Part shown: in pieces, positions 9,555 through 39,297 of the stretch | Layout of the letters: each line of letters starts with the position of its first letter | How positions within the stretch are numbered: the first letter of the stretch is position 1 | From: Escherichia phage vB_EcoS_MM01 | Length of the DNA: 43,157 nucleotides | Sequence record: MK373793.1 | Direction: 5' to 3' (one strand) | Notes under the pieces: generated by a model | Databases searched by the model: none | What the model was told of the DNA's origin: nothing | What the model saw: the letters and a program-made list of their open reading frames with translations, nothing else | Position numbers and translations under genes: made by a program

Positions 9555-11096
9555 ATGGCTTTAGAATTTAGGCAAATCCTTGCTGGTAACACAGCATCAC
9601 TTAGCCGTAAGGTGCTAGAGGCAATTGCGGAAGGTTGGCAGCCATTTGATAGAGTCCTGACCGGTACTGGATCTAATACCATTGGCATGGTTGTAGCCAA
9701 GGGAACCAATGCAGACATTACCGATTTCATGGTTCTTACTGCCACCAGTCGTCAAAAGCTAATTGATAGAGTAAACGATATCACTCACGAAGGTTGGGAG
9801 GTGTTTGGCGAACCGTCATCTGAGTCAAATCAGTTTGCAGTTGCGTTAACTAAAGGATTTCAGGGTACATCCGGTAGAGATGGAATGGCTGGCCCACAAG
9901 GTCCGCAAGGTCCGCGCGGAGAGGTTGGCCCAGAAGGTCCGCAGGGTCCAAAAGGTGACGATGGTACGCCTGGTGAAAAGGGTGAGCGTGGCGCTGTAGG
10001 TCCGCAAGGACCAATTGGCCCACAGGGCATTCAAGGTCCGCAAGGAATTCAAGGTCCAGCTGGCTTAAAGGGTGATAAGGGCGATAGGGGTGATGTTGGA
10101 CCGCAAGGGACGCAAGGATTAAAAGGTGATACTGGCGAGAAAGGAGACCCTGGCGAAGTCGGGCCTGCTGGTTTAACATTCCGTGGGCAATGGGTTCCTA
10201 GCACTGGTTATACAAAAGATGACACTGTAGTTTACGGCGGCTCAACCTACTTCGCAGTTAGCAACATTGCAGAAGATGAGGAACCTGGAGTATCACCTCT
10301 GTGGGTTGTTCTTGCCGCTCAGGGTACGAAAGGTGATAAGGGTGATAAGGGTGACCCTGGTGATATCGGTCCTCAAGGTGAAAAAGGAGAAACAGGACAG
10401 CAGGGCCCAAGAGGGGTTCAGGGGCAACAAGGTATTCAAGGTTTACCAGGCGAACAGGGGCCAAAAGGTGATCAAGGATTGCAAGGAATTACTGGACCAG
10501 CCGGTCCTCAAGGACCAAAAGGTGACACTGGACCTCAGGGTATTCAAGGTCCACAAGGGATTAGAGGGGTTGCTGGAGCGGTAGGACCACAAGGACCACA
10601 GGGAGAGAGGGGCGAAAAGGGCGATAAAGGAGAAAAAGGCGAAACTGGCGCAACCGGCCCACAGGGTCCAGCAGGTCAAAATAATACAAACAATCCAGTT
10701 TATACAACTCAACTTACCGTATCGACAAGCTACTCAGCTATAGCTATACCAAACAACCCTGGCATCTCTTTTTCAGTCAGAAGGGTTGGGAATAACATTG
10801 AGTACTCTTTTGTAGGCAACTCAATTGCAGGAAGGTATTTTGATGTTGAGGTTGTAAACTTTCCATCTGCTGACGTAGTTAAGAGATATCAGTCAAACCA
10901 CACAATTGCAGGAACTAGCAGGTATGTTGTAGGTGATCCTGCTGGTTATACTGGTGGTGGATATAAAAGAATTCAATTCTCAGCTAGAGATTGGGGAGAT
11001 AAAAACATTATAATGATTGATGTTTTTCACCTTCAGCGCCCAGCTGATACTAGTTTTAACATCGCAATTAGGATTGAGACATTCAAGCTGCCATAA
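9555..11096 (+). CDS. collagen-like repeat protein (putative head or tail fibre)
   Basis: 513 aa; two long Gly-X-Y blocks (approx. aa 107-196 and 248-360) flanking a globular insert, plus non-collagenous N- and C-terminal domains. Confidence 0.8.
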
Positions 11097-26681: not shown

Positions 26682-26701
26682 CTTTAGCAATTCGTGCTAT
26701 T
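26682..26701 (-). repeat. junction motif A copy (aatagcacgaattgctaaag on minus strand)
   Basis: supplies stop codon of upstream methyltransferase-like ORF; motif B at 26641-26650. Confidence 0.6.
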
Positions 26702-27340
26702 CGCCAAGAATACAGCTCTTGCAAATCCACGAGGTGTAAGACTGCGAATTACCTTCGTCTTCTTGCTCTTGCCACCGAGTTTCTTATATTGGTCAGAGAA
26801 ACCATCATTAACATCAACAGGAAGCAACTCAGGCCACTTAAATCCATTACCAGACCAAATGCACGTCTTCTTAGGGTATGCGTCCCTTGACTTTATTAGG
26901 TCGCTAAAAAACGGGTGTAAATCATCTTCAGGCAAGTATCCACCAAACTCGTAAGGGTGGAATGTGTTATCAGGCTTTCGCCACAGAGATGACAGTACAC
27001 TGATTGGATTCTCAATCATATAAGGCACGCCGTACTTCTCAGCCAGGTTAAAAGCAACCTTGCAAGTTTCTGCCGCTTCAGTCTGGAAGTTTGGGTTAGC
27101 TTGGCGCTTACGTTCAAAATGCCTTGACCCACTCACAGCCAAATCAGTGCATGGTGGGAAAGCCAATATGAAATCAGGTTTCACATCAAAATCGAAGTTT
27201 GCATCAATCCATGCGTTAACGTACTTAATGTTATCGTGCTCAACCTTCGCATTCAAATCGCCGTAACTACCGTGGTCAGACTCGTCAAAGTTGAAGCAGT
27301 AACAAGTGTGACCAGCCTCAGCCCTAGTTAGCGCAGCAGA
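26684..27340 (-). pseudogene. cytosine-C5 DNA methyltransferase-like ORF, apparently 5'-truncated
   Basis: PDFILAFPPCTDLAVSG resembles C5-MTase motif IV (PC dipeptide) and MIENP the ENV motif, but no FxGxG motif I; frame open to 27340 with no ATG/GTG, only TTG at 27256. Confidence 0.45.
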
Positions 27341-27359
27341 CTATGACAAGGTTGTCGCA

Positions 27360-27866
27360 ATGCGCGAGGTTCTTTGCAACATTCCGGCTTATGATAGTAT
27401 TGTTAACAGCGAAACGGCTCAGAAGGAGTTATCAATCTTTGGTGAGATTCTCGGTGTTGGTGTAAAGATTCGAATTGACCACGTTGACGTTGTTGATGGA
27501 GTTGTTCATATCACAGATTATAAGACCACAGCAGACGCAAGCCCTGAAGGGTTCGGTAAATCAGCTTTCTCTCATGGATACTTGGCTAAAATGGCATTGC
27601 AGCGCGATCTGTTTGTAAAAGCATTTAACGAGAAGAGGAAGGTAGTCGTTGGTCTTATGGCACAAGAAAAAACTGAACCTTACTTACCCATGAAGTACAC
27701 GCTAACAGATGATCAGCTTCGTATTGGCAGATTGCAGTATCTTGAAGCCCTAGCTACATACAAGAAATGCAAGGAGCTTGATATATGGCCTGGTTACTCA
27801 AATGGGATTACAGAGCAAGAGCTAGTTATCCCTGATTGGGCAACTAAGCAGTATAAAGAAATTTAA
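27360..27866 (+). CDS. PD-(D/E)xK exonuclease (lambda Exo/YqaJ-like), possibly N-terminally truncated
   Basis: catalytic-core-like IDHVDVVDG...ITDYKT near N-terminus; frame opens only at 27312. Confidence 0.55.
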   Translation: MREVLCNIPAYDSIVNSETAQKELSIFGEILGVGVKIRIDHVDVVDGVVHITDYKTTADASPEGFGKSAFSHGYLAKMALQRDLFVKAFNEKRKVVVGLMAQEKTEPYLPMKYTLTDDQLRIGRLQYLEALATYKKCKELDIWPGYSNGITEQELVIPDWATKQYKEI

Positions 27867-32282: not shown

Positions 32283-34277
32283 ATGCTTCCCGTAGAAAAA
32301 CTTGTTGCTAACTTTGATAAGAATCGACTTGCAGAGATTAAGCGTGACTACTCATTTGGTGAGATAACTCCTTACGATTTTCAATGCGTGACATTTGATG
32401 CAATTGGCAAAGCAATTGGAAAGTACGAGGCGCCATTTATAGCTGACCTTTCCGTTTCTGCCGGTAAAACAATAATTCTAGCTATGATTGGTAAGCGAAT
32501 GGAGCAGCTTGGTCTTCCTTACATGGTCCTGTCTCGCCAGTCAGAAATAGTTTCGCAAGATAGCGAAGAGCTTCGCAATTTCGGTATCCGTAATAGCGTC
32601 TATTGCGCTGGCCTTAACGTTAAATCTGTTTACTACCCAACGATAGTGGCAAGTGAAGGAACCGCAGCCAATGGCTTGTTTAAGGGTCTTGGTGACTATG
32701 TTCCGGCAGTTATCGCCATAGATGAATGTCACATGGTGGATCATATGGATATAGTTGAGGCAGAAGAGAACGAAGAAACGTTTGAGCAAATGAGCACCGC
32801 AAAAGGTGAAATGGTTTCCAAAGATGGTGAATACACGGGGTTAACTGGTACAGGCCGCTCACAGTACACATTAATCATAACTGAGATGAAAAGGCGTTGC
32901 CGTGAGAAATACAAGCGCGAACTACGTATCTTTGGACTTACTGGTAGCCCATACCGTGATAACAATCATATCGTGGTAAGTAATCCTAATATTCGAGGAT
33001 TTTGGCGCAAGACGGTTATGCAAGTGCCAACCAATTACCTTGTTGACTTGGGGTTTGTTGTCCCAACAGTTTACGGAGAGGTTGGTGATTTGGGTTATGA
33101 CCTTGCTGAGTTTACACCAGATGGCTCTGATGGGGTTAAAGACTTCACAAAGAAAGACTTGAATGCAATGGAGGAGAAGATTCACCAAAGCCAATCTATG
33201 ACACAAAAGATTATGCAGTTTGCAGCTAAGTTCATGGAGACAAGGAACGCAGCACTTGTTACTTGTTCTGGCAAGCGTCATTGCGAAGAGGCGGCGGCTG
33301 CCCTTCCTGAAGGTGTAACCTGGGCTATAGTAACAGACTCCACAGGAGAGAAAAAACGCCGTGAGATTCTAGCTGATGCATCTGAGGGTAAGTATAAATT
33401 CATTTTCCAGATTGGATGCCTCACAACCGGCGTAAATGTCCCGCCGTGGGATACGTCAATAATTCTTAGGAAGGTTGGCAGCATCACATTGCTTATTCAG
33501 CTTCTGGGTCGTGGTATGCGCATTCTTAAGAAGAAGCATAAAGAAATGGGTATGGTTAAAGATGACCACGTGGTATTAGACTTCGCTGGCACTCTCGATG
33601 ACATGGCAGAATTATACTTTGACCCAATCATAGAAGAGGTTCAGGACCAGAAATTCAAGTCTTCTCGTAAGGGTGGGGAAGAGCCAAGAGTATGCCCAGC
33701 TTGCAGCTATGAGAACTCACCATTTGCTCGTAGATGTAATAATGTTATAGATGGAAAAAGATGTGAGCACTTCTTTCAGTTCCGCACTTGTGATGACATT
33801 GAGGATCCTCAGACAAAGGTTATATTAAAGAAAGGATGCGGTGAGAAAAACGACATTGCTGCTAAAAACTGTAGATGCTGTGGCGAGATGTTGATTGACC
33901 CAAACGCCAAACTTTCAGGAAAGATGTATCGTCAAGGGGATTGGTTGCGAGTTTACAGATTTAGCATTGGTCTAACTAAAAACCAAACTGGCATAGTCGC
34001 CCGTTATGAAATCATGGCGCACAGTGGTCAGAGGTTCATTGCATATGAAACATTCTTCCCAGAGAGTGACCATCGCGTTTGCTCTGTTAAGTGGAAGGCA
34101 TTTTGTCAGACTCACATACAGAACAAAGCAGAGGCATTTAGAATTGGCCGCTTGCGTAATGCGAAAATGATCATGACCAACGCCAGCCAGTTCCGTGAGC
34201 CAATGCGAGTGACACACAGAAAAAACCAAAAAGGTCAGGACATCATAGCCAATAAATCTTTTACTATGGAGGATTGA
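32283..34277 (+). CDS. SF2 DNA helicase (DEAH/DECH box)
   Basis: Walker A SAGKT, motif II IAIDECHMV, C-terminal Cys-rich zinc-finger-like cluster. Confidence 0.7.
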   Translation: MLPVEKLVANFDKNRLAEIKRDYSFGEITPYDFQCVTFDAIGKAIGKYEAPFIADLSVSAGKTIILAMIGKRMEQLGLPYMVLSRQSEIVSQDSEELRNFGIRNSVYCAGLNVKSVYYPTIVASEGTAANGLFKGLGDYVPAVIAIDECHMVDHMDIVEAEENEETFEQMSTAKGEMVSKDGEYTGLTGTGRSQYTLIITEMKRRCREKYKRELRIFGLTGSPYRDNNHIVVSNPNIRGFWRKTVMQVPTNYLVDLGFVVPTVYGEVGDLGYDLAEFTPDGSDGVKDFTKKDLNAMEEKIHQSQSMTQKIMQFAAKFMETRNAALVTCSGKRHCEEAAAALPEGVTWAIVTDSTGEKKRREILADASEGKYKFIFQIGCLTTGVNVPPWDTSIILRKVGSITLLIQLLGRGMRILKKKHKEMGMVKDDHVVLDFAGTLDDMAELYFDPIIEEVQDQKFKSSRKGGEEPRVCPACSYENSPFARRCNNVIDGKRCEHFFQFRTCDDIEDPQTKVILKKGCGEKNDIAAKNCRCCGEMLIDPNAKLSGKMYRQGDWLRVYRFSIGLTKNQTGIVARYEIMAHSGQRFIAYETFFPESDHRVCSVKWKAFCQTHIQNKAEAFRIGRLRNAKMIMTNASQFREPMRVTHRKNQKGQDIIANKSFTMED

Positions 34278-34278
34278 A

Positions 34279-34698
34279 GTGAAGATTACAGATAAAGAAG
34301 ATTACATTGAGTTTTACCCAGGCGCTGTAAAGTCATGCCCAAAGGAGGATGACGAACAGATCTTTTGCTCTGATTGGGTTAAGTATCATTATCCGCAGAT
34401 TGTTTACTGGCATACAGTTAATGAAGGTATGAAATCAATTGGGTCAGCAAGGAAGGATGCAGCCAAGGGTTTGCTTAAGGGTGTATCAGATTGCTTATTC
34501 CTGATACCCGAATCGCTGCGTGGCAAGTACCCTTTCGGAGCTATAGAGTTAAAGAGAGCTGGCAAGACCCAGGCTAGTCCAGTCAGCGATGAACAAAGGT
34601 CTTTCCTTAAAAGCGTAAGAGAATCAGGCGGCTTCGCAGGTGTCGCATACGGGCGCGAAGGTTTTCTTGCAGCATTCAAAGAAATGATTTCAAAATAG
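34279..34698 (+). CDS. VRR-NUC domain nuclease (putative)
   Basis: 139 aa; PD-(D/E)xK-like DCLFL...GAIELK; GTG start coupled to helicase stop. Confidence 0.5.
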   Translation: MKITDKEDYIEFYPGAVKSCPKEDDEQIFCSDWVKYHYPQIVYWHTVNEGMKSIGSARKDAAKGLLKGVSDCLFLIPESLRGKYPFGAIELKRAGKTQASPVSDEQRSFLKSVRESGGFAGVAYGREGFLAAFKEMISK

Positions 34699-34713
34699 CA
34701 CTAATTGCTAAAG
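34694..34713 (+). repeat. junction motif A copy (aatagcactaattgctaaag)
   Basis: TAG stop of VRR-NUC gene lies within motif; motif B at 34745-34754; ATG 34777. Confidence 0.6.
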
Positions 34714-34776
34714 ACGTTTCGATGGGTTGGTGTATTATCTATTCATCGAAACGAAACACACAAAGAGAGAAAGAAA

Positions 34777-34971
34777 ATGGCTACTATCTTTACTGGTAAA
34801 ATCTACGAATCACGCAAGACTGGTTACGAATATGAATTGGTAATCACTGAAGAAGGTTATGTTCTTGATGATGGTGATGGTTACGCATTCGAAGTTAGCC
34901 CTAGCTATAAAGATGATTTAGAAACTGTTAAAAACGCATTTGGCGAGAAATTTGATGAGGTATCAGAATAA
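34777..34971 (+). CDS. hypothetical protein (64 aa)
   Basis: internal ATG of track ORF 34705, placed by motif B and RBS. Confidence 0.45.
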   Translation: MATIFTGKIYESRKTGYEYELVITEEGYVLDDGDGYAFEVSPSYKDDLETVKNAFGEKFDEVSE

Positions 34972-35192
34972 TGGCAATTTTTACTTTTGAAAATCAATGG
35001 GAAGTGTTCAAGTTAATGGTAGTTCAGGAGTTAGATAGGTCTGGCTACAAAGGAGATATGTGGTATTTGGCTGAATGCCTTGATATGAGCTTTGAAGAGG
35101 ATTACCTGAACACGGATGTCGAAACATGGCGTGACCGTGTGGTTGCAGACATCGCAGAAATGAAAAAAGATTGCCCGGAGGATTTCGAATAA
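34971..35192 (+). CDS. hypothetical protein (73 aa)
   Basis: ORF track; coupled. Confidence 0.45.
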   Translation: MAIFTFENQWEVFKLMVVQELDRSGYKGDMWYLAECLDMSFEEDYLNTDVETWRDRVVADIAEMKKDCPEDFE

Positions 35193-35317
35193 TGAAAATT
35201 GTAGACAAAGAGATGTTCGAGATTGCACAGGTTTACGCAAGTGACGCTGTTAAGACTGGCTCAGAGTATTGCTGGATGTGTGCTAGAGAATACTTAAAAA
35301 TGGCTTACGGCCTATGA
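35192..35317 (+). CDS. hypothetical small protein (41 aa)
   Basis: read manually; TAATG overlap upstream, ATGA overlap downstream. Confidence 0.3.
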   Translation: MKIVDKEMFEIAQVYASDAVKTGSEYCWMCAREYLKMAYGL

Positions 35318-35556
35318 TAGTTGAAACCGGACGCGCCGCAGTTTGGGCGCACTGTGGAGAGGCGGGATTGCAAGATGACATCAAGAAAATATCTAAATAC
35401 TTCGATATTCAAGAAATCAGCGTTGTGTACGGCGGTAAATTTTCATATATACAAGATCGTCCAAGGAAATATGTAAGAGTTAAGCCTGGTGTGAGTATTG
35501 ATGTTAACGATTTCCTGAAATCTCAGGGATGCAAATTTAAGATAACCAAGGGTTAA
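35314..35556 (+). CDS. hypothetical protein (80 aa)
   Basis: ORF track. Confidence 0.45.
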   Translation: MIVETGRAAVWAHCGEAGLQDDIKKISKYFDIQEISVVYGGKFSYIQDRPRKYVRVKPGVSIDVNDFLKSQGCKFKITKG

Positions 35557-35558
35557 AT

Positions 35559-35810
35559 ATGTTGGGTTTATATTTTCAGCCAGAGCATTACGATTTAGTG
35601 TATGGGCAAAGTGGGGCGAAGTTTAGAGCGATACCTATTTCTGATTGGTTTCCTCCTGACTATCTTGATGTTAACGCAAAAACTAAAGATGGAAAGTGGG
35701 TTCAGATTTACTACTCGCCAGCTTGCGGCAACCTTTGCATGACTGACTTGGACCAGAAATTAGCAATTAGTGCGGAAATGATTGATTACTGGTTAAAAGA
35801 AGTTGAATGA
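35559..35810 (+). CDS. hypothetical protein (83 aa)
   Basis: ORF track. Confidence 0.45.
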   Translation: MLGLYFQPEHYDLVYGQSGAKFRAIPISDWFPPDYLDVNAKTKDGKWVQIYYSPACGNLCMTDLDQKLAISAEMIDYWLKEVE

Positions 35811-35881
35811 GAGCACTAACACTAGTAGCATTAGCACCACTGTTTAGCTTTACTATCTTATACTTTATCGTAATGAATTAA
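35807..35881 (+). CDS. very small hydrophobic peptide (24 aa)
   Basis: read manually; ATGA overlap; could be non-coding. Confidence 0.25.
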   Translation: MRALTLVALAPLFSFTILYFIVMN

Positions 35882-35891
35882 GGAACTTAAA

Positions 35892-37028
35892 ATGGCAACT
35901 GCAAAAATTACCAACGAAGAGCTGCGCGAAGAGCTGGCGAACGGTATGACTAACAAAGCAATCGCAGAGAAGTACGGTATGAATATTCGCAATGTTGAGT
36001 TGCGTCGTAGTAAATTGGCAAAGAGTGGAGAATTGCACGGAAACCCAGGCATCAAAAAGCTAGTTCCTGACGGTTATATGGTTAAGGGAACATCAACGAT
36101 GATTGATGCCGAAGGTAACGAAAAGATTCGCTGGGTTAAAACATCCGTAGATAATGAGCGCCTTGAGGTTTTAATGGAGCAGGCTCGAGAGGCATTTTGC
36201 TCAGAGTTGCCAAAGGCTATTCCATCTGAATCACCGAATGTTAACTTTGATGATAACACACTTGCGATGTATCCAGTTTTTGATTTACACATTGGAGCAA
36301 TGGCACACAAACACGAGTGCGGCGAAAACTACGACACAGCAACAGCCGAGAAAGTAATGAATGGATTCTTTGATTACGCTGTTGATAAGGCGCCAAACTC
36401 TAAGAATGCTGTATTGGTATTGGGTGGCGATTTCCTGCATTACGATTCACTTGAGGCAAAAACACCAGCTTCAGGGCATATCTTAGATAGCGACAGTCGT
36501 TATGCAAAAATTGTTTATGTTGCAATCCGGTCAGTACGTCGTGCAATTTCTCGAATGATGGGGAAGCACCAGAATATCGACATTAAAGTTATAAGCGGAA
36601 ACCATGATGAAGCGGGAATGGTTTGGTTGCGTGCGGCGCTGGCTGCATTTTATGAAGATGAGCCGCGTGTAAGCGTTGACGTTAGCCCTGCCGCTATGAT
36701 GATGACCAGCTTTGGAAGCACGCTTATTGGTTATACTCATGGGCACCAGATGCGTAAAGCTGATACAAGACTGACTGTTATGGCAACTGATTTCCGTAAG
36801 TTGTTTGGGCAAAGTGAGTATGTTTATACACATAGTGGCCATTGGCACTCACAGAAAATTACAGAGACGAATCTTGGTATTGATGAAGTTCACGGCCAGC
36901 TAGGTAGCCCAGATGCGTACTCGGCAAATGGCGGCTGGCGCTCTCAGCGTCAAGCGGCAGTAATCGTTTATCATAAGGAATTTGGCGAGGTTGGTCGCTT
37001 CATCTGTCGCCCAAAAATGTTTAGCTAA
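35892..37028 (+). CDS. calcineurin-like metallophosphoesterase with N-terminal HTH-like domain
   Basis: motifs DLHIG, GGDFLHYD, GNHDE, GHWH in order; N-terminal TNKAIAEKYGMNIRNVELRR resembles an HTH. Confidence 0.65.
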   Translation: MATAKITNEELREELANGMTNKAIAEKYGMNIRNVELRRSKLAKSGELHGNPGIKKLVPDGYMVKGTSTMIDAEGNEKIRWVKTSVDNERLEVLMEQAREAFCSELPKAIPSESPNVNFDDNTLAMYPVFDLHIGAMAHKHECGENYDTATAEKVMNGFFDYAVDKAPNSKNAVLVLGGDFLHYDSLEAKTPASGHILDSDSRYAKIVYVAIRSVRRAISRMMGKHQNIDIKVISGNHDEAGMVWLRAALAAFYEDEPRVSVDVSPAAMMMTSFGSTLIGYTHGHQMRKADTRLTVMATDFRKLFGQSEYVYTHSGHWHSQKITETNLGIDEVHGQLGSPDAYSANGGWRSQRQAAVIVYHKEFGEVGRFICRPKMFS

Positions 37029-37046
37029 TAGCACTTTTTGTTAAAA
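37027..37046 (+). repeat. junction motif A copy (aatagcactttttgttaaaa)
   Basis: begins right after TAA stop; hairpin acccac-gaaa-gtgggt; motif B 37078-37087; ATG 37100. Confidence 0.6.
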
Positions 37047-37099
37047 CGATACCCACGAAAGTGGGTATTATTGTTTTATCGAAACGAGAGGAGATAGAA

Positions 37100-37588
37100 A
37101 TGAATTGGCATGAATTTTTCATATACGATAATGGAACTTTGTTTTGGAAGGTGAAGCCTTCAAGAAGTGTCTTGGTTGGCAGCGTTGCTGGTGGCTTGCA
37201 CTCCGCTGGATATGTTGACTTAAGGTTAAATAAAAAAGCATACTTGTGCCATAGAATTATTTGGGAGATGCATAACGGGATAATACCAGAAGGTATGGAG
37301 ATTGATCATATAAATCACATTAGGGATGACAACAGAATTGAGAATTTGCGACTTGTGAGCAGGCTAGAAAACCATAGAAACAGATCAAAACCAAAAAACA
37401 ATAAAAGCGGATTTACTGGAGTGAGGCAAACGAATAGTGGTAAGTGGACATCTTACATATGCTTAAGGGATGAAAATAACAAGAGGTATATAAAAACATT
37501 ATATTACGGAGATTCTTTTGATTGCGCTGTATCTGCAAGAGTCGAGGCTGTGAAAGGCTTTGGGTTTCATGATAATCACGGGGAGTAA
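37100..37588 (+). CDS. HNH endonuclease with AP2-like DNA-binding domain
   Basis: IDHINHIRDDNRIENLRLVSRLENHRN plus C-terminal GFTGVRQ...GKWTSYI. Confidence 0.65.
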   Translation: MNWHEFFIYDNGTLFWKVKPSRSVLVGSVAGGLHSAGYVDLRLNKKAYLCHRIIWEMHNGIIPEGMEIDHINHIRDDNRIENLRLVSRLENHRNRSKPKNNKSGFTGVRQTNSGKWTSYICLRDENNKRYIKTLYYGDSFDCAVSARVEAVKGFGFHDNHGE

Positions 37589-37594
37589 GAAGGA

Positions 37595-37858
37595 ATGACT
37601 AGAGAGAAATATAACAGAGAAATCATTGGCCTGAATGGCGAAACTGCAATCGTGGACGTATATCGAGTTCTTTCGGCTTTTAATGTGCAAAACCCAATGG
37701 CACAGCACGCAATCAAAAAGCTCCTTTGTGCAGGGTTAAGAGGCCACAAAGACTTAAACGAGGATGTTGATGACATTATCGATTCATTGCAGAAAATGAA
37801 AACCTTCTTAGGTCAGCAGCAAATAGCACAAATTGCTAAAGACAATAATCAAAAGTAA
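37595..37858 (+). CDS. hypothetical protein (87 aa)
   Basis: ORF track; embeds a motif A copy in its C-terminal codons. Confidence 0.45.
   Translation: MTREKYNREIIGLNGETAIVDVYRVLSAFNVQNPMAQHAIKKLLCAGLRGHKDLNEDVDDIIDSLQKMKTFLGQQQIAQIAKDNNQK
37822..37841 (+). repeat. junction motif A copy embedded in coding sequence (aatagcacaaattgctaaag)
   Basis: encodes QIAQIAK; motif B at 37873-37882 precedes next gene. Confidence 0.55.
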
Positions 37859-37892
37859 GTTAATATAACCACATCGAAACGAGATAAACCAA

Positions 37893-38096
37893 ATGAACGA
37901 GAGAGATAAAATGACTAACGTAACACTGAAATGCACATCAAACACTTCTAAGTCCCTGGATTTCGTAGTAGGAAATACTTATGAGGCAGTTGACCGCAAG
38001 GACTCGATGTTTGAGGTGATCAGCGAGAAAGGTTGGTGTTTGATTATGCCGCTGGATGGGCACTTCGTTAAGTTTGGGGTAACAAAACAGAAATAA
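37893..38096 (+). CDS. hypothetical protein (67 aa)
   Basis: ORF track. Confidence 0.45.
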   Translation: MNERDKMTNVTLKCTSNTSKSLDFVVGNTYEAVDRKDSMFEVISEKGWCLIMPLDGHFVKFGVTKQK

Positions 38097-38124
38097 TATA
38101 GCAATATAAAACATAGATATGCGT

Positions 38125-38153
38125 AGGGGTGGCCTTTTGGCTGCCCCTTTTTT
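38125..38153 (+). terminator. rho-independent terminator
   Basis: aggggtggcc-tttt-ggctgcccct imperfect hairpin plus T run. Confidence 0.5.
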
Positions 38154-38228
38154 CGTTCAAATCTTATGTAGTTAAGGTTAGTATTTAGACATTATGTTTA
38201 ACTATTGACAATTTAATGAGGTTTTATT

Positions 38229-38444
38229 ATGCGCGATGTAATTAACGCCGCTACTGCTCTTTCTGGCGGCTCTTCCTTGACTGGAGCTGCTACTGGGCAG
38301 CTTGTTGTTGCTGTTATTGGTCTTATTTTTCTTATTGCATTTGGTTTGTTTGGTGCCTGGCTTAAGTGGAAGGATAGTAAAGCAATTCGCCGCGCGCTAG
38401 AGTCTGGAGACTTGCAGACAGCGTTAAAGCTGAGAGCTAAGTAA
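38229..38444 (+). CDS. holin (possibly pinholin)
   Basis: 71 aa, Gly/Ala-rich hydrophobic segments, charged C-terminus, directly upstream of endolysin. Confidence 0.5.
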   Translation: MRDVINAATALSGGSSLTGAATGQLVVAVIGLIFLIAFGLFGAWLKWKDSKAIRRALESGDLQTALKLRAK

Positions 38445-38935
38445 TGAGTACGCAAAGGGTAGTGATAGGCGTACTAACTGCGGGTGCTATAGGTATAGCC
38501 GCCCCTCTTATCGAAAAGGTGGAGGGTGTAGAGTACAAGCCTTATAAGGACATCGCTGGAATTTGGACTGTTTGCAGTGGTATTACTGGTCCTGATGTCA
38601 TCATTGGTAAAACATATACCAAATCAGAGTGCAGGAAATTGTTAACCAAGCACATAGCAATACACGGGAAATATGTTGAAGATGCCATTAAAGTTCCAGT
38701 ACATCCAAACACTCGAGCGGCGCTAATTAGCTTTAGCTACAATGTTGGCGGCAATGCAATGAGGAAGTCTACAGCTGTAAGGCTAATTAACAACGGAAAG
38801 ATTGAGCAGGGGTGTAAGGCGCTGAGTCTTTGGAATAAAGCCACCATTAACGGCAAGAAGGTTGTCGTTAAGGGGCTTGTTAATCGCAGGAATGAGGAGA
38901 TCAAGCTATGCTTAAGCGGCTTGCAGGGTTATTGA
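38444..38935 (+). CDS. SAR endolysin (lysozyme, phage 21 R-like)
   Basis: N-terminal Gly/Ala-rich signal-anchor VVIGVLTAGAIGIAAPLI then EGVEYKPYKDIAGIWTVCSGITG with Glu/Asp/Thr catalytic triad. Confidence 0.8.
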   Translation: MSTQRVVIGVLTAGAIGIAAPLIEKVEGVEYKPYKDIAGIWTVCSGITGPDVIIGKTYTKSECRKLLTKHIAIHGKYVEDAIKVPVHPNTRAALISFSYNVGGNAMRKSTAVRLINNGKIEQGCKALSLWNKATINGKKVVVKGLVNRRNEEIKLCLSGLQGY

Positions 38936-39297
38936 TGTTCGCGGCCTTATCTGGATGCTCGGCAACTGATGCGCTGACCGGGCTAATTGGCAGTAAGCCA
39001 GAAGTCACGGCACAGGTTGGTGCGGCTAACAATAAGGTTGGCGTTGGTGCTTCAGTTAGTAGCGACTCTAGCAACTCATCAGAGGCCACAGTAAGAGATT
39101 CAAAGGTTGGTAGCCTTGATAGCTCTAGCGGTAAAAAGACCTCTGACAATTCGATTAAGGCATCTACAATCACTGCAGAAAAGATTGAAATTACCAATAA
39201 CGAATCATCCGCGCTTCCGTGGATTGGAACAGGAGCTATGGGTCTGCTGGTTTTAATTCTCCTGGCCTTAATCTTAAGACGTAAAAAAGCCTCCTAA
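38908..39297 (+). CDS. unimolecular spanin (lipoprotein with C-terminal TMD)
   Basis: lipobox LSGC at N-terminus and C-terminal TM helix GLLVLILLALIL followed by RRKKAS. Confidence 0.6.
   Translation: MLKRLAGLLMFAALSGCSATDALTGLIGSKPEVTAQVGAANNKVGVGASVSSDSSNSSEATVRDSKVGSLDSSSGKKTSDNSIKASTITAEKIEITNNESSALPWIGTGAMGLLVLILLALILRRKKAS

Follow-up and report, generated by a model that had tools for sequence, protein, structure and literature searches.

The window analysed here is the 43,157-nucleotide stretch of Escherichia phage vB_EcoS_MM01 (MM01; sequence record MK373793.1), a T1/Rtp-like siphophage genome (Drexlerviridae, Braunvirinae) with ∼82–87% DNA identity to Rtp, ACG-M12 and their relatives. 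The open reading frame (ORF) under study, at positions 35892–37028, encodes a helix-turn-helix (HTH) segment joined to a calcineurin-like metallophosphoesterase (MPE) domain. Its orthologs are Rtp rtp61, T1 gp16 (CPTT1_064) and TLS gp66 (PHROG 704), the MM01 product being 96.8% identical to the Rtp protein and 87.5% identical to that of T1 at the amino acid (aa) level. Residues 4–377 matched positions 2–389 of the 390-position phrog_704 profile with an expectation value (E) of 3.3e-155. The Rtp annotation describes rtp61 as 'highly similar to gp16 of phage T1', while its RefSeq name is 'DNA repair exonuclease'. The Rtp, T1 and TLS orthologs are the same full-length protein with no difference of substance, and they occupy the same gene slot, after the helicase/VRR-NUC genes and before the holin gene. 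Judged by sequence, the MM01 gene is a routine one, having a 97%-identical ortholog, being already present in PHROGs and RefSeq and being widespread in T1-like (Drexlerviridae) phages.

A comparison with the Rtp gene was performed to observe the selection acting on the coding sequence. The two genes share 86% DNA identity, with a synonymous divergence (dS) of ∼1.0 and a ratio of non-synonymous to synonymous divergence (dN/dS) of 0.023. By domain, the ratio was 0.018 in the HTH, 0.12 in the middle segment and 0.014 in the MPE domain. The low overall value indicates that the gene is real and made as protein, and that both the HTH and the MPE domain are under constraint.

The domain architecture was obtained from an AlphaFold2 model built with a 66-homolog alignment, which reached a mean predicted local distance difference test score (pLDDT) of 92.2 and a predicted template modelling score (pTM) of 0.79. 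The sequence-only reading had placed an HTH-like segment within an N-terminal extension of roughly 130 residues; the extension is real, and the HTH is supported. The MPE strands begin at about residue 120 and the DxH motif lies at residue 131, while the three helices of the HTH (aa 8–16, 21–28 and 32–44) were modelled with a pLDDT of 92–96. The presumed recognition helix, aa 32–44, is basic, with five K/R residues against one D/E. Although the HTH of the MM01 sequence itself stays below the Pfam threshold (GerE, 13.8 vs. 23.5 bits; Sigma70_r4_2 likewise), the homologs gave significant matches to Sigma70_r4_2 (n = 11, best 1.5e-9), GerE (n = 6, 2.4e-8) and HTH_1 (n = 12). The family profile searched against the PDB matched LuxR/VraR DNA-binding domains (E 0.006–0.02), with VraR and GerE at E 0.006–0.012. 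Pairwise identity across the family was lowest in the HTH (25%), compared with 36% in the hairpin that follows it and 39% in the MPE domain, and distant tblastn matches begin at query residues 58–64. These two observations point to a conserved core made of the hairpin, the adjoining helix and the MPE domain, to which an HTH that differs among lineages is attached.

Conserved residues were identified from an alignment of 66 diverse homologs having 29–64% identity to the query. The residues D131, H133, E142, G179, D180, T191, R203, N237, H238, G275, H283, G316 and H319 were invariant, and W81, H183, D185, L198, D199, D239, R259, H317 and D341 were conserved in at least 90% of the sequences. Such conservation exceeds what chance would give. 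The five motifs of the MPE superfamily with their seven metal ligands (D,H / D / N / H / H,H), together with the catalytic His of GNH, are complete in the ORF. The four motifs named in the sequence-only reading (DxH, GDxxxYD, GNHDE and GHWH) were all located, as was the motif IV histidine, H283 of HGH, which it had not listed. The loss of key ligands on formal alignment, which would have spoken against that reading, was not seen, as the homologs keep the metal ligands. The ORF missed the gathering threshold of Pfam PF00149 (17.9 vs. 21.5 bits), and only 16 of the 66 homologs matched this model at E < 0.01. The PHROG 704 MPE is a divergent branch of the calcineurin-like metallophosphoesterase superfamily. 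The features and their coordinates are collected in Table 1.

Table 1. Features of the ORF and its immediate flanks, in window coordinates.
Feature	Coordinates	Strand	Basis
Shine-Dalgarno-like AAGGA, ATG 7 nt further on	35880..35884	+	read from sequence
Complete ORF, ATG...TAA, 378 aa	35892..37028	+	ORF call; PHROG 704 ortholog
N-terminal three-helix HTH, aa 8–44	35913..36023	+	AlphaFold helices; GerE match aa 13–41; family HTH matches
Lower-confidence linker, aa 45–61, from HTH to conserved core	36024..36074	+	pLDDT 69–72, residues 41–60
Family-specific β-hairpin, aa 62–86 (W81 nearly invariant), and helix, aa 88–104	36075..36203	+	alignment, AlphaFold
MPE catalytic domain, aa 120–378, β-sandwich, no capping domain	36249..37025	+	AlphaFold, structure and profile comparison
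MPE motif I, D131-L-H133, both invariant	36282..36290	+	alignment; matches D-W-H of T. maritima Mre11
MPE motif II, G179-D180-F-L-H183-Y-D185, Mre11-type GDxxH	36426..36446	+	alignment, profile search
Family-specific loop TPxSGHxLDxDxR; T191, R203 invariant; L198, D199 at least 90%	36462..36500	+	66-homolog alignment
MPE motif III, G236-N237-H238-D239-E240, then conserved WL	36597..36611	+	alignment; matches SNHD...WL of T5 A1
MPE motif IV, H283-G-H285, H283 invariant	36738..36746	+	alignment
MPE motif V, G316-H317-W-H319	36837..36848	+	alignment
Terminator-like hairpin, 20 nt past the MPE stop codon	37048..37069	+	consensus match only

The MPE superfamily holds both phosphatases and nucleases, and the sequence-only reading had left the choice between a protein phosphatase and an Mre11/SbcD-like nuclease. 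The PPP signatures GDxHG, GDxVDRG and GNHE do not occur in the ORF, which has DLHIG, GDFLHYD and GNHD instead. Foldseek ranked Mre11 at the top, and motifs I, II (GDlLH), III and V of the family aligned in register with T. maritima Mre11. A phmmer search of PDB sequences with the single ORF returned only a chance ArnD match, and hhalign against single references proved too insensitive, aligning E. coli SbcD at GNHD only and giving nothing meaningful with lambda NinI. An MPE-only profile search of the PDB was used in place of the latter. Among all PDB sequences, it reached only nucleases, namely T. maritima Mre11/SbcD (E 0.0025–0.023) and the P. putida 'Nuclease MPE' (E 0.12). The closest structural and profile similarity was thus not to PPP enzymes, and the MPE domain is nuclease-type, not PPP-type, in affinity. 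A PPP phosphatase was rejected on the absent signatures together with the nuclease-type sequence and structure affinities. The phosphatase half of the earlier proposal consequently falls and the Mre11-like affinity stands, whereas membership of the true Mre11/SbcD enzymes does not.

Mre11/SbcD proteins (T. maritima 2q8u/3qg5; S. aureus SbcD 7dog) share with the ORF the GDxxH form of motif II and the GNHD motif. They differ in possessing a capping domain and a Rad50-binding C-terminus, while the ORF product ends at residue 378 with the last strands of the sandwich and carries an N-terminal HTH and hairpin that they lack; only ∼190 of 362 Mre11 residues align with the model. The NCBIfam search gave no SbcD/Mre11 model at E ≤ 1, only a sub-threshold 13.9-bit PdeM fragment. 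No Rad50/SbcC ATPase was found among the window ORFs scanned, in the Rtp annotation or in the homolog neighbourhoods of five other lineages. The scan covered the large and replication-region ORFs of the window: terminase, portal, protease, tail fibres, two helicases, primase, Erf, VRR-NUC, HNH, methyltransferase and a truncated exonuclease VIII. A Rad50-dependent Mre11/SbcD was rejected on the lack of a capping domain, a Rad50-binding region, a partner among the ORFs and neighbourhoods scanned, and a curated-model match.

The best fold match of the ORF was DP1, the small subunit of archaeal PolD and a 3′–5′ proofreading exonuclease (5ihe/6knb), at 11% identity. The label 'proof-reading exonuclease' given to TLS gp66 rests on HHpred similarity to PolD 6KNB. 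Neither DP2 nor any other DNA polymerase was found in the scanned ORFs of the window or in the listed Rtp genes; a PolD-type proofreader was rejected on this ground, and the label is therefore left without a polymerase to serve. Both 'SbcD/Mre11' and 'proof-reading exonuclease' claim more than is known.

A parallel to this combination of domains is offered by the A1 protein of phage T5, which a 2026 preprint describes as necessary and sufficient for host-DNA degradation, as structurally resembling double-strand-break repair nucleases and polymerase proofreading subunits, and as being tied also to transcription shut-off (10.64898/2026.04.02.716235). T5 A1 and the ORF are thus alike in two structural neighbours, the Mre11-type nuclease and the PolD proofreading subunit. 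They also share the same layout, an N-terminal HTH and, at the C-terminus, a divergent MPE in which the five motifs are complete, as well as an NHDxxxxxWL feature. In the A1 family alignment (33 members), all motifs were invariant: D304xH306, HD..D at 339–343, S395-N-H-D398 followed by WL, H476/H478 and G500-H-x-H503. Many members have an N-terminal HTH at aa ∼5–45 (HTH_23, 3e-6; HTH_7, 3e-6; CENP-B_N, 2.5e-6), the same position as in the ORF.

Alignment of the MPE halves of the two families by hhalign gave a weak, collinear match over 213 columns, in which motifs I, III, IV and V fell in register (score 35.1, E 3.2e-4, probability 39%), against a maximum score of 24.4 for 30 column-shuffled profiles and 12.9 for a reversed profile. 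The N-terminal regions aligned as well (E 5e-4). T5 A1 is longer, at 556 residues, having a ∼230-residue middle region where the ORF has the ∼60-residue hairpin and helix, and BLASTP found no significant alignment between the two proteins. PHROG 1745, the T5 A1 family, is not among the PHROG matches of the ORF, and T5 A1 matches PHROG 1745 only. T5 A1 was not found among the top 50 BFVD structural neighbours of the ORF, and its family profile matched no MPE by sequence in the PDB. The shared architecture is therefore established, and the ORF does not belong to the A1 family. We treat T5 A1 as an analogue and a possible remote homolog, and keep the claim of homology at the superfamily level.

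The preprint places A1 mainly in Demerecviridae (10.64898/2026.04.02.716235). Distant A1-family members (∼45% identity; for example P0456, P0486 and P0459) occur outside Demerecviridae-sized genomes and have a Pfam-detectable N-terminal HTH. The contig that carries one of them (L018 7001–8632) measures 46 kb, and the gene there has a DnaB-like helicase on one side and a family-A DNA polymerase on the other.

On balance, the explanation we narrowly favour for the gene is a stand-alone, HTH-tethered DNA nuclease, with host-DNA breakdown as its most likely role. The protein would be a single-chain enzyme in which a LuxR/sigma-70-region-4-like HTH is connected, presumably by a flexible linker, to a binuclear-metal phosphodiesterase of the Mre11/SbcD/PolD-DP1 type. 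The HTH would keep the protein on duplex DNA while the MPE domain cuts DNA phosphodiester bonds, two divalent metals being held by D131, H133, D180, N237, H283, H317 and H319, and H238 and H183 may aid catalysis as they do in Mre11. By replacing the absent DNA-clamping Rad50/SbcC partner, the HTH would allow the enzyme to act alone. Its role would most likely be the breakdown of the host chromosome in lytic growth, for which T5 A1 would serve as the functional parallel. According to the 2024 TLS re-annotation, T1 and TLS degrade the host genome enzymatically and reuse its nucleotides (citing Roberts and Drexler, 1981; Christensen et al., 1981). That the product is a DNA nuclease we hold to be probable, with some confidence; that it is the host-DNA-degradation enzyme of T1-type phages, an assignment made by analogy, is a tentative proposal.

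The family to which the gene belongs is large. At E ≤ 1e-3, an exhaustive HMMER search retrieved the representatives of 4,727 clusters formed at 50% identity, 1,015 of them at E ≤ 1e-30. By tblastn, 2,049 of 50,697 phage records (∼4%) contained a homolog. These cover Drexlerviridae, Jerseyvirus/Kagunavirus, Dhillonvirus and Casjensviridae phages, as well as Vibrio, roseobacter, Flavobacterium and Campylobacter phages and one jumbo phage. Three records labelled as Campylobacter phages A110b, A113 and A118 (MG065688.1, MG065680.1 and MG065675.1; 44–50 kb) are close to MM01, with 81% identity over 74% of a 23-kb query, and their Campylobacter jejuni host labels look doubtful. The annotations of the homologs conflict, and include 'DNA repair exonuclease', 'phosphoesterase', 'metallo-dependent phosphatase-like', 'phosphatase', 'recombination endonuclease subunit' and 'oxidoreductase'; NCBI and JGI names of relatives add 'winged helix-turn-helix domain-containing protein' and 'biotin operon repressor'. 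All of these names are predictions.

The genome neighbourhood was examined in the window and around the homologs. The order in the window is helicase (32283–34277), VRR-NUC (34279–34698), six small ORFs, the MPE gene, an HNH-bearing insertion of ∼1.1 kb and the holin/endolysin/spanin genes (38229–39297), with the MPE gene co-oriented with and downstream of the helicase and VRR-NUC genes. Rtp and ZL19 have the same gene order; of the three, only MM01 carries the insertion directly 3′ of the gene. The MPE gene also stands just before lysis genes in TLS and in a lambdoid/P22-like temperate prophage of P. aeruginosa (GCA_054919215.1, locus L015 10001–11134; a cluster of 315 member sequences), and lysis genes lie near the homolog in EK99P-1 and a Vibrio phage. 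In the P. aeruginosa prophage, the homolog is 3′ of NinB- and PD-(D/E)XK-type (PDDEXK_15) genes and 5′ of holin and endolysin genes, the slot that lambda NinI takes at the end of the nin region; an AcrIE3-like gene lies nearby. No conserved partner gene was found beside the homologs of Jerseyvirus Ent1, Dhillonvirus EK99P-1, a Casjensviridae roseophage, a Vibrio phage, metagenomic contigs and the P. aeruginosa prophage. PADLOC returned no match for the ORF, and a promoter scan of 34600–38300 gave 8 sigma-70-like sites against 9.2 ± 3.4 in shuffled sequence.

The segment without a counterpart in Rtp and ZL19 (37041–38228) holds an HNH ORF (37061–37588; HNH_3 endonuclease, Pfam 1.3e-21, phrog_99 1e-58) and small ORFs at 37595–37858 and 37893–38096, and by its gene content looks like a free-standing homing-endonuclease insertion. 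The terminator-like hairpin after the MPE gene overlaps the listed GTG start of the HNH ORF, so the true start may be an ATG at ∼37100. A stronger terminator-like hairpin (38125–38148; 10-bp stem, 7 GC pairs, T-run) precedes the holin gene. Other phages too have an HNH gene adjoining the MPE gene, upstream in TLS (gp65) and downstream in both Salmonella phage Ent1 and Vibrio phage 99E28-1a. This conserved gene may repeatedly have served as a target for homing.

Elsewhere in the window, the RecE-like exonuclease VIII is cut down (26701–27866) to an ORF at 27360–27866 (+) that retains the C-terminal 168 residues (phrog_412 positions 249–412 of 440). Homology to Rtp rtp47 (321 aa) begins at rtp47 residue 142, window position 27324, and rtp46 with the 5′ half of rtp47 is replaced by a DNA-methyltransferase-like ORF (26684–27256, − strand; phrog_757, E 2.5e-70). 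The tail-fibre ORF at 9555–11096 encodes 513 residues with repeats and matches 44 PHROGs, several of them collagen-like tail proteins; its first 146 residues match phrog_22681 'DNA polymerase', probably a mis-annotation there.

Three points weigh against the host-degradation role. The presence of a homolog in the temperate P. aeruginosa prophage does not suit it. The literature on T1 gp16, Drexlerviridae phosphoesterases, HTH-metallophosphoesterases, defence-escape mutants and phage calcineurin-like nucleases yielded no experimental characterisation. In several T1-like genomes, among them Jk06 (H128/H129), phiJLA23 and Salmonella phage 36, the annotation splits the gene into two or three pieces (98–258 aa), which also make up PHROGs 20703 and 20762. 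As the Jk06 span shows no insertion, the fragments are attributed to frameshifts, being either sequencing errors or true pseudogenes, and such copies suggest a dispensable gene.

The alternative that survives best, which we consider possible if not probable, retains the same kind of DNA nuclease and lets it act on phage DNA, on ends, hairpins and stalled or branched replication and recombination intermediates, together with the helicase, the VRR-NUC resolvase and Erf/SSB. The Mre11/SbcD-like fold and motifs fit this role, as does the sense of the 'DNA repair exonuclease' label, and the gene follows those for helicase and VRR-NUC in the same orientation. One distant contig has the homolog directly after a DUF3799 exonuclease and an AAA_24 protein, and the prophage homolog comes after the PDDEXK_15 gene, in a nin-like region that also holds NinB; occurrence in a temperate phage fits DNA metabolism better than host destruction. 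With exonuclease VIII reduced in MM01, another nuclease might also be needed. However, no recombination gene stays beside it from one lineage to the next, the Rad50/SbcC that canonical end-processing Mre11 enzymes need was not found, and nothing marks phage DNA as the substrate.

A small-molecule phosphodiesterase, acting for example on a cyclic (oligo)nucleotide to blunt host signalling or signalling-based defence, with the HTH serving regulation or localisation, is improbable. By sequence, the family profile matches nucleases only and no such enzyme, motif II has the GDxxH form of Mre11, and a conserved and selected HTH has no obvious use in a soluble hydrolase; neither a PADLOC match nor a defence-related context was seen. 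The homologs that match Sigma70_r4_2, GerE and LysR-type HTH models, the position of the gene directly upstream of the lysis cassette, seen in several lineages, and the link of T5 A1 to transcription shut-off could instead point to a protein that is mainly a transcription regulator, with the HTH on promoters or RNA polymerase and the MPE domain as a sensor or accessory. This is very unlikely, as the catalytic ligands are conserved throughout the homologs, which would indicate an active enzyme, whereas the HTH is the least conserved part, at the 25% pairwise identity given above against 39%, and the core common to distant homologs begins after it. Weakest is a Ser/Thr/Tyr protein phosphatase aimed at host proteins like lambda NinI (lambda-PPase, of the PPP family, a different branch of the same superfamily), for which the best point is the NinI-like slot before lysis genes that the gene holds in the P. 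aeruginosa prophage and, more loosely, in the window, next to the 'phosphatase' name of some records; sequence and structure weigh more than this positional parallel, and we give the reading almost no weight.

The analysis of the ORF drops the protein-phosphatase reading for PHROG 704, a large family bearing contradictory names, and ties it by architecture to T5 A1. A more speculative proposal, which we regard as doubtful at present, is that the two families belong, as separate branches, to a single class of Mre11-like nucleases, HTH-tethered and independent of Rad50, with which phages destroy the host chromosome, so that the MM01 gene would supply the T1-type degradation function genetically defined in 1981 and still unassigned in 2024. 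T1 mutants defective in host-DNA degradation show a raised transduction frequency. The ORF is a concrete candidate for the T1-type breakdown of the host's genome, and it bears on transduction by therapeutic T1-like phages.
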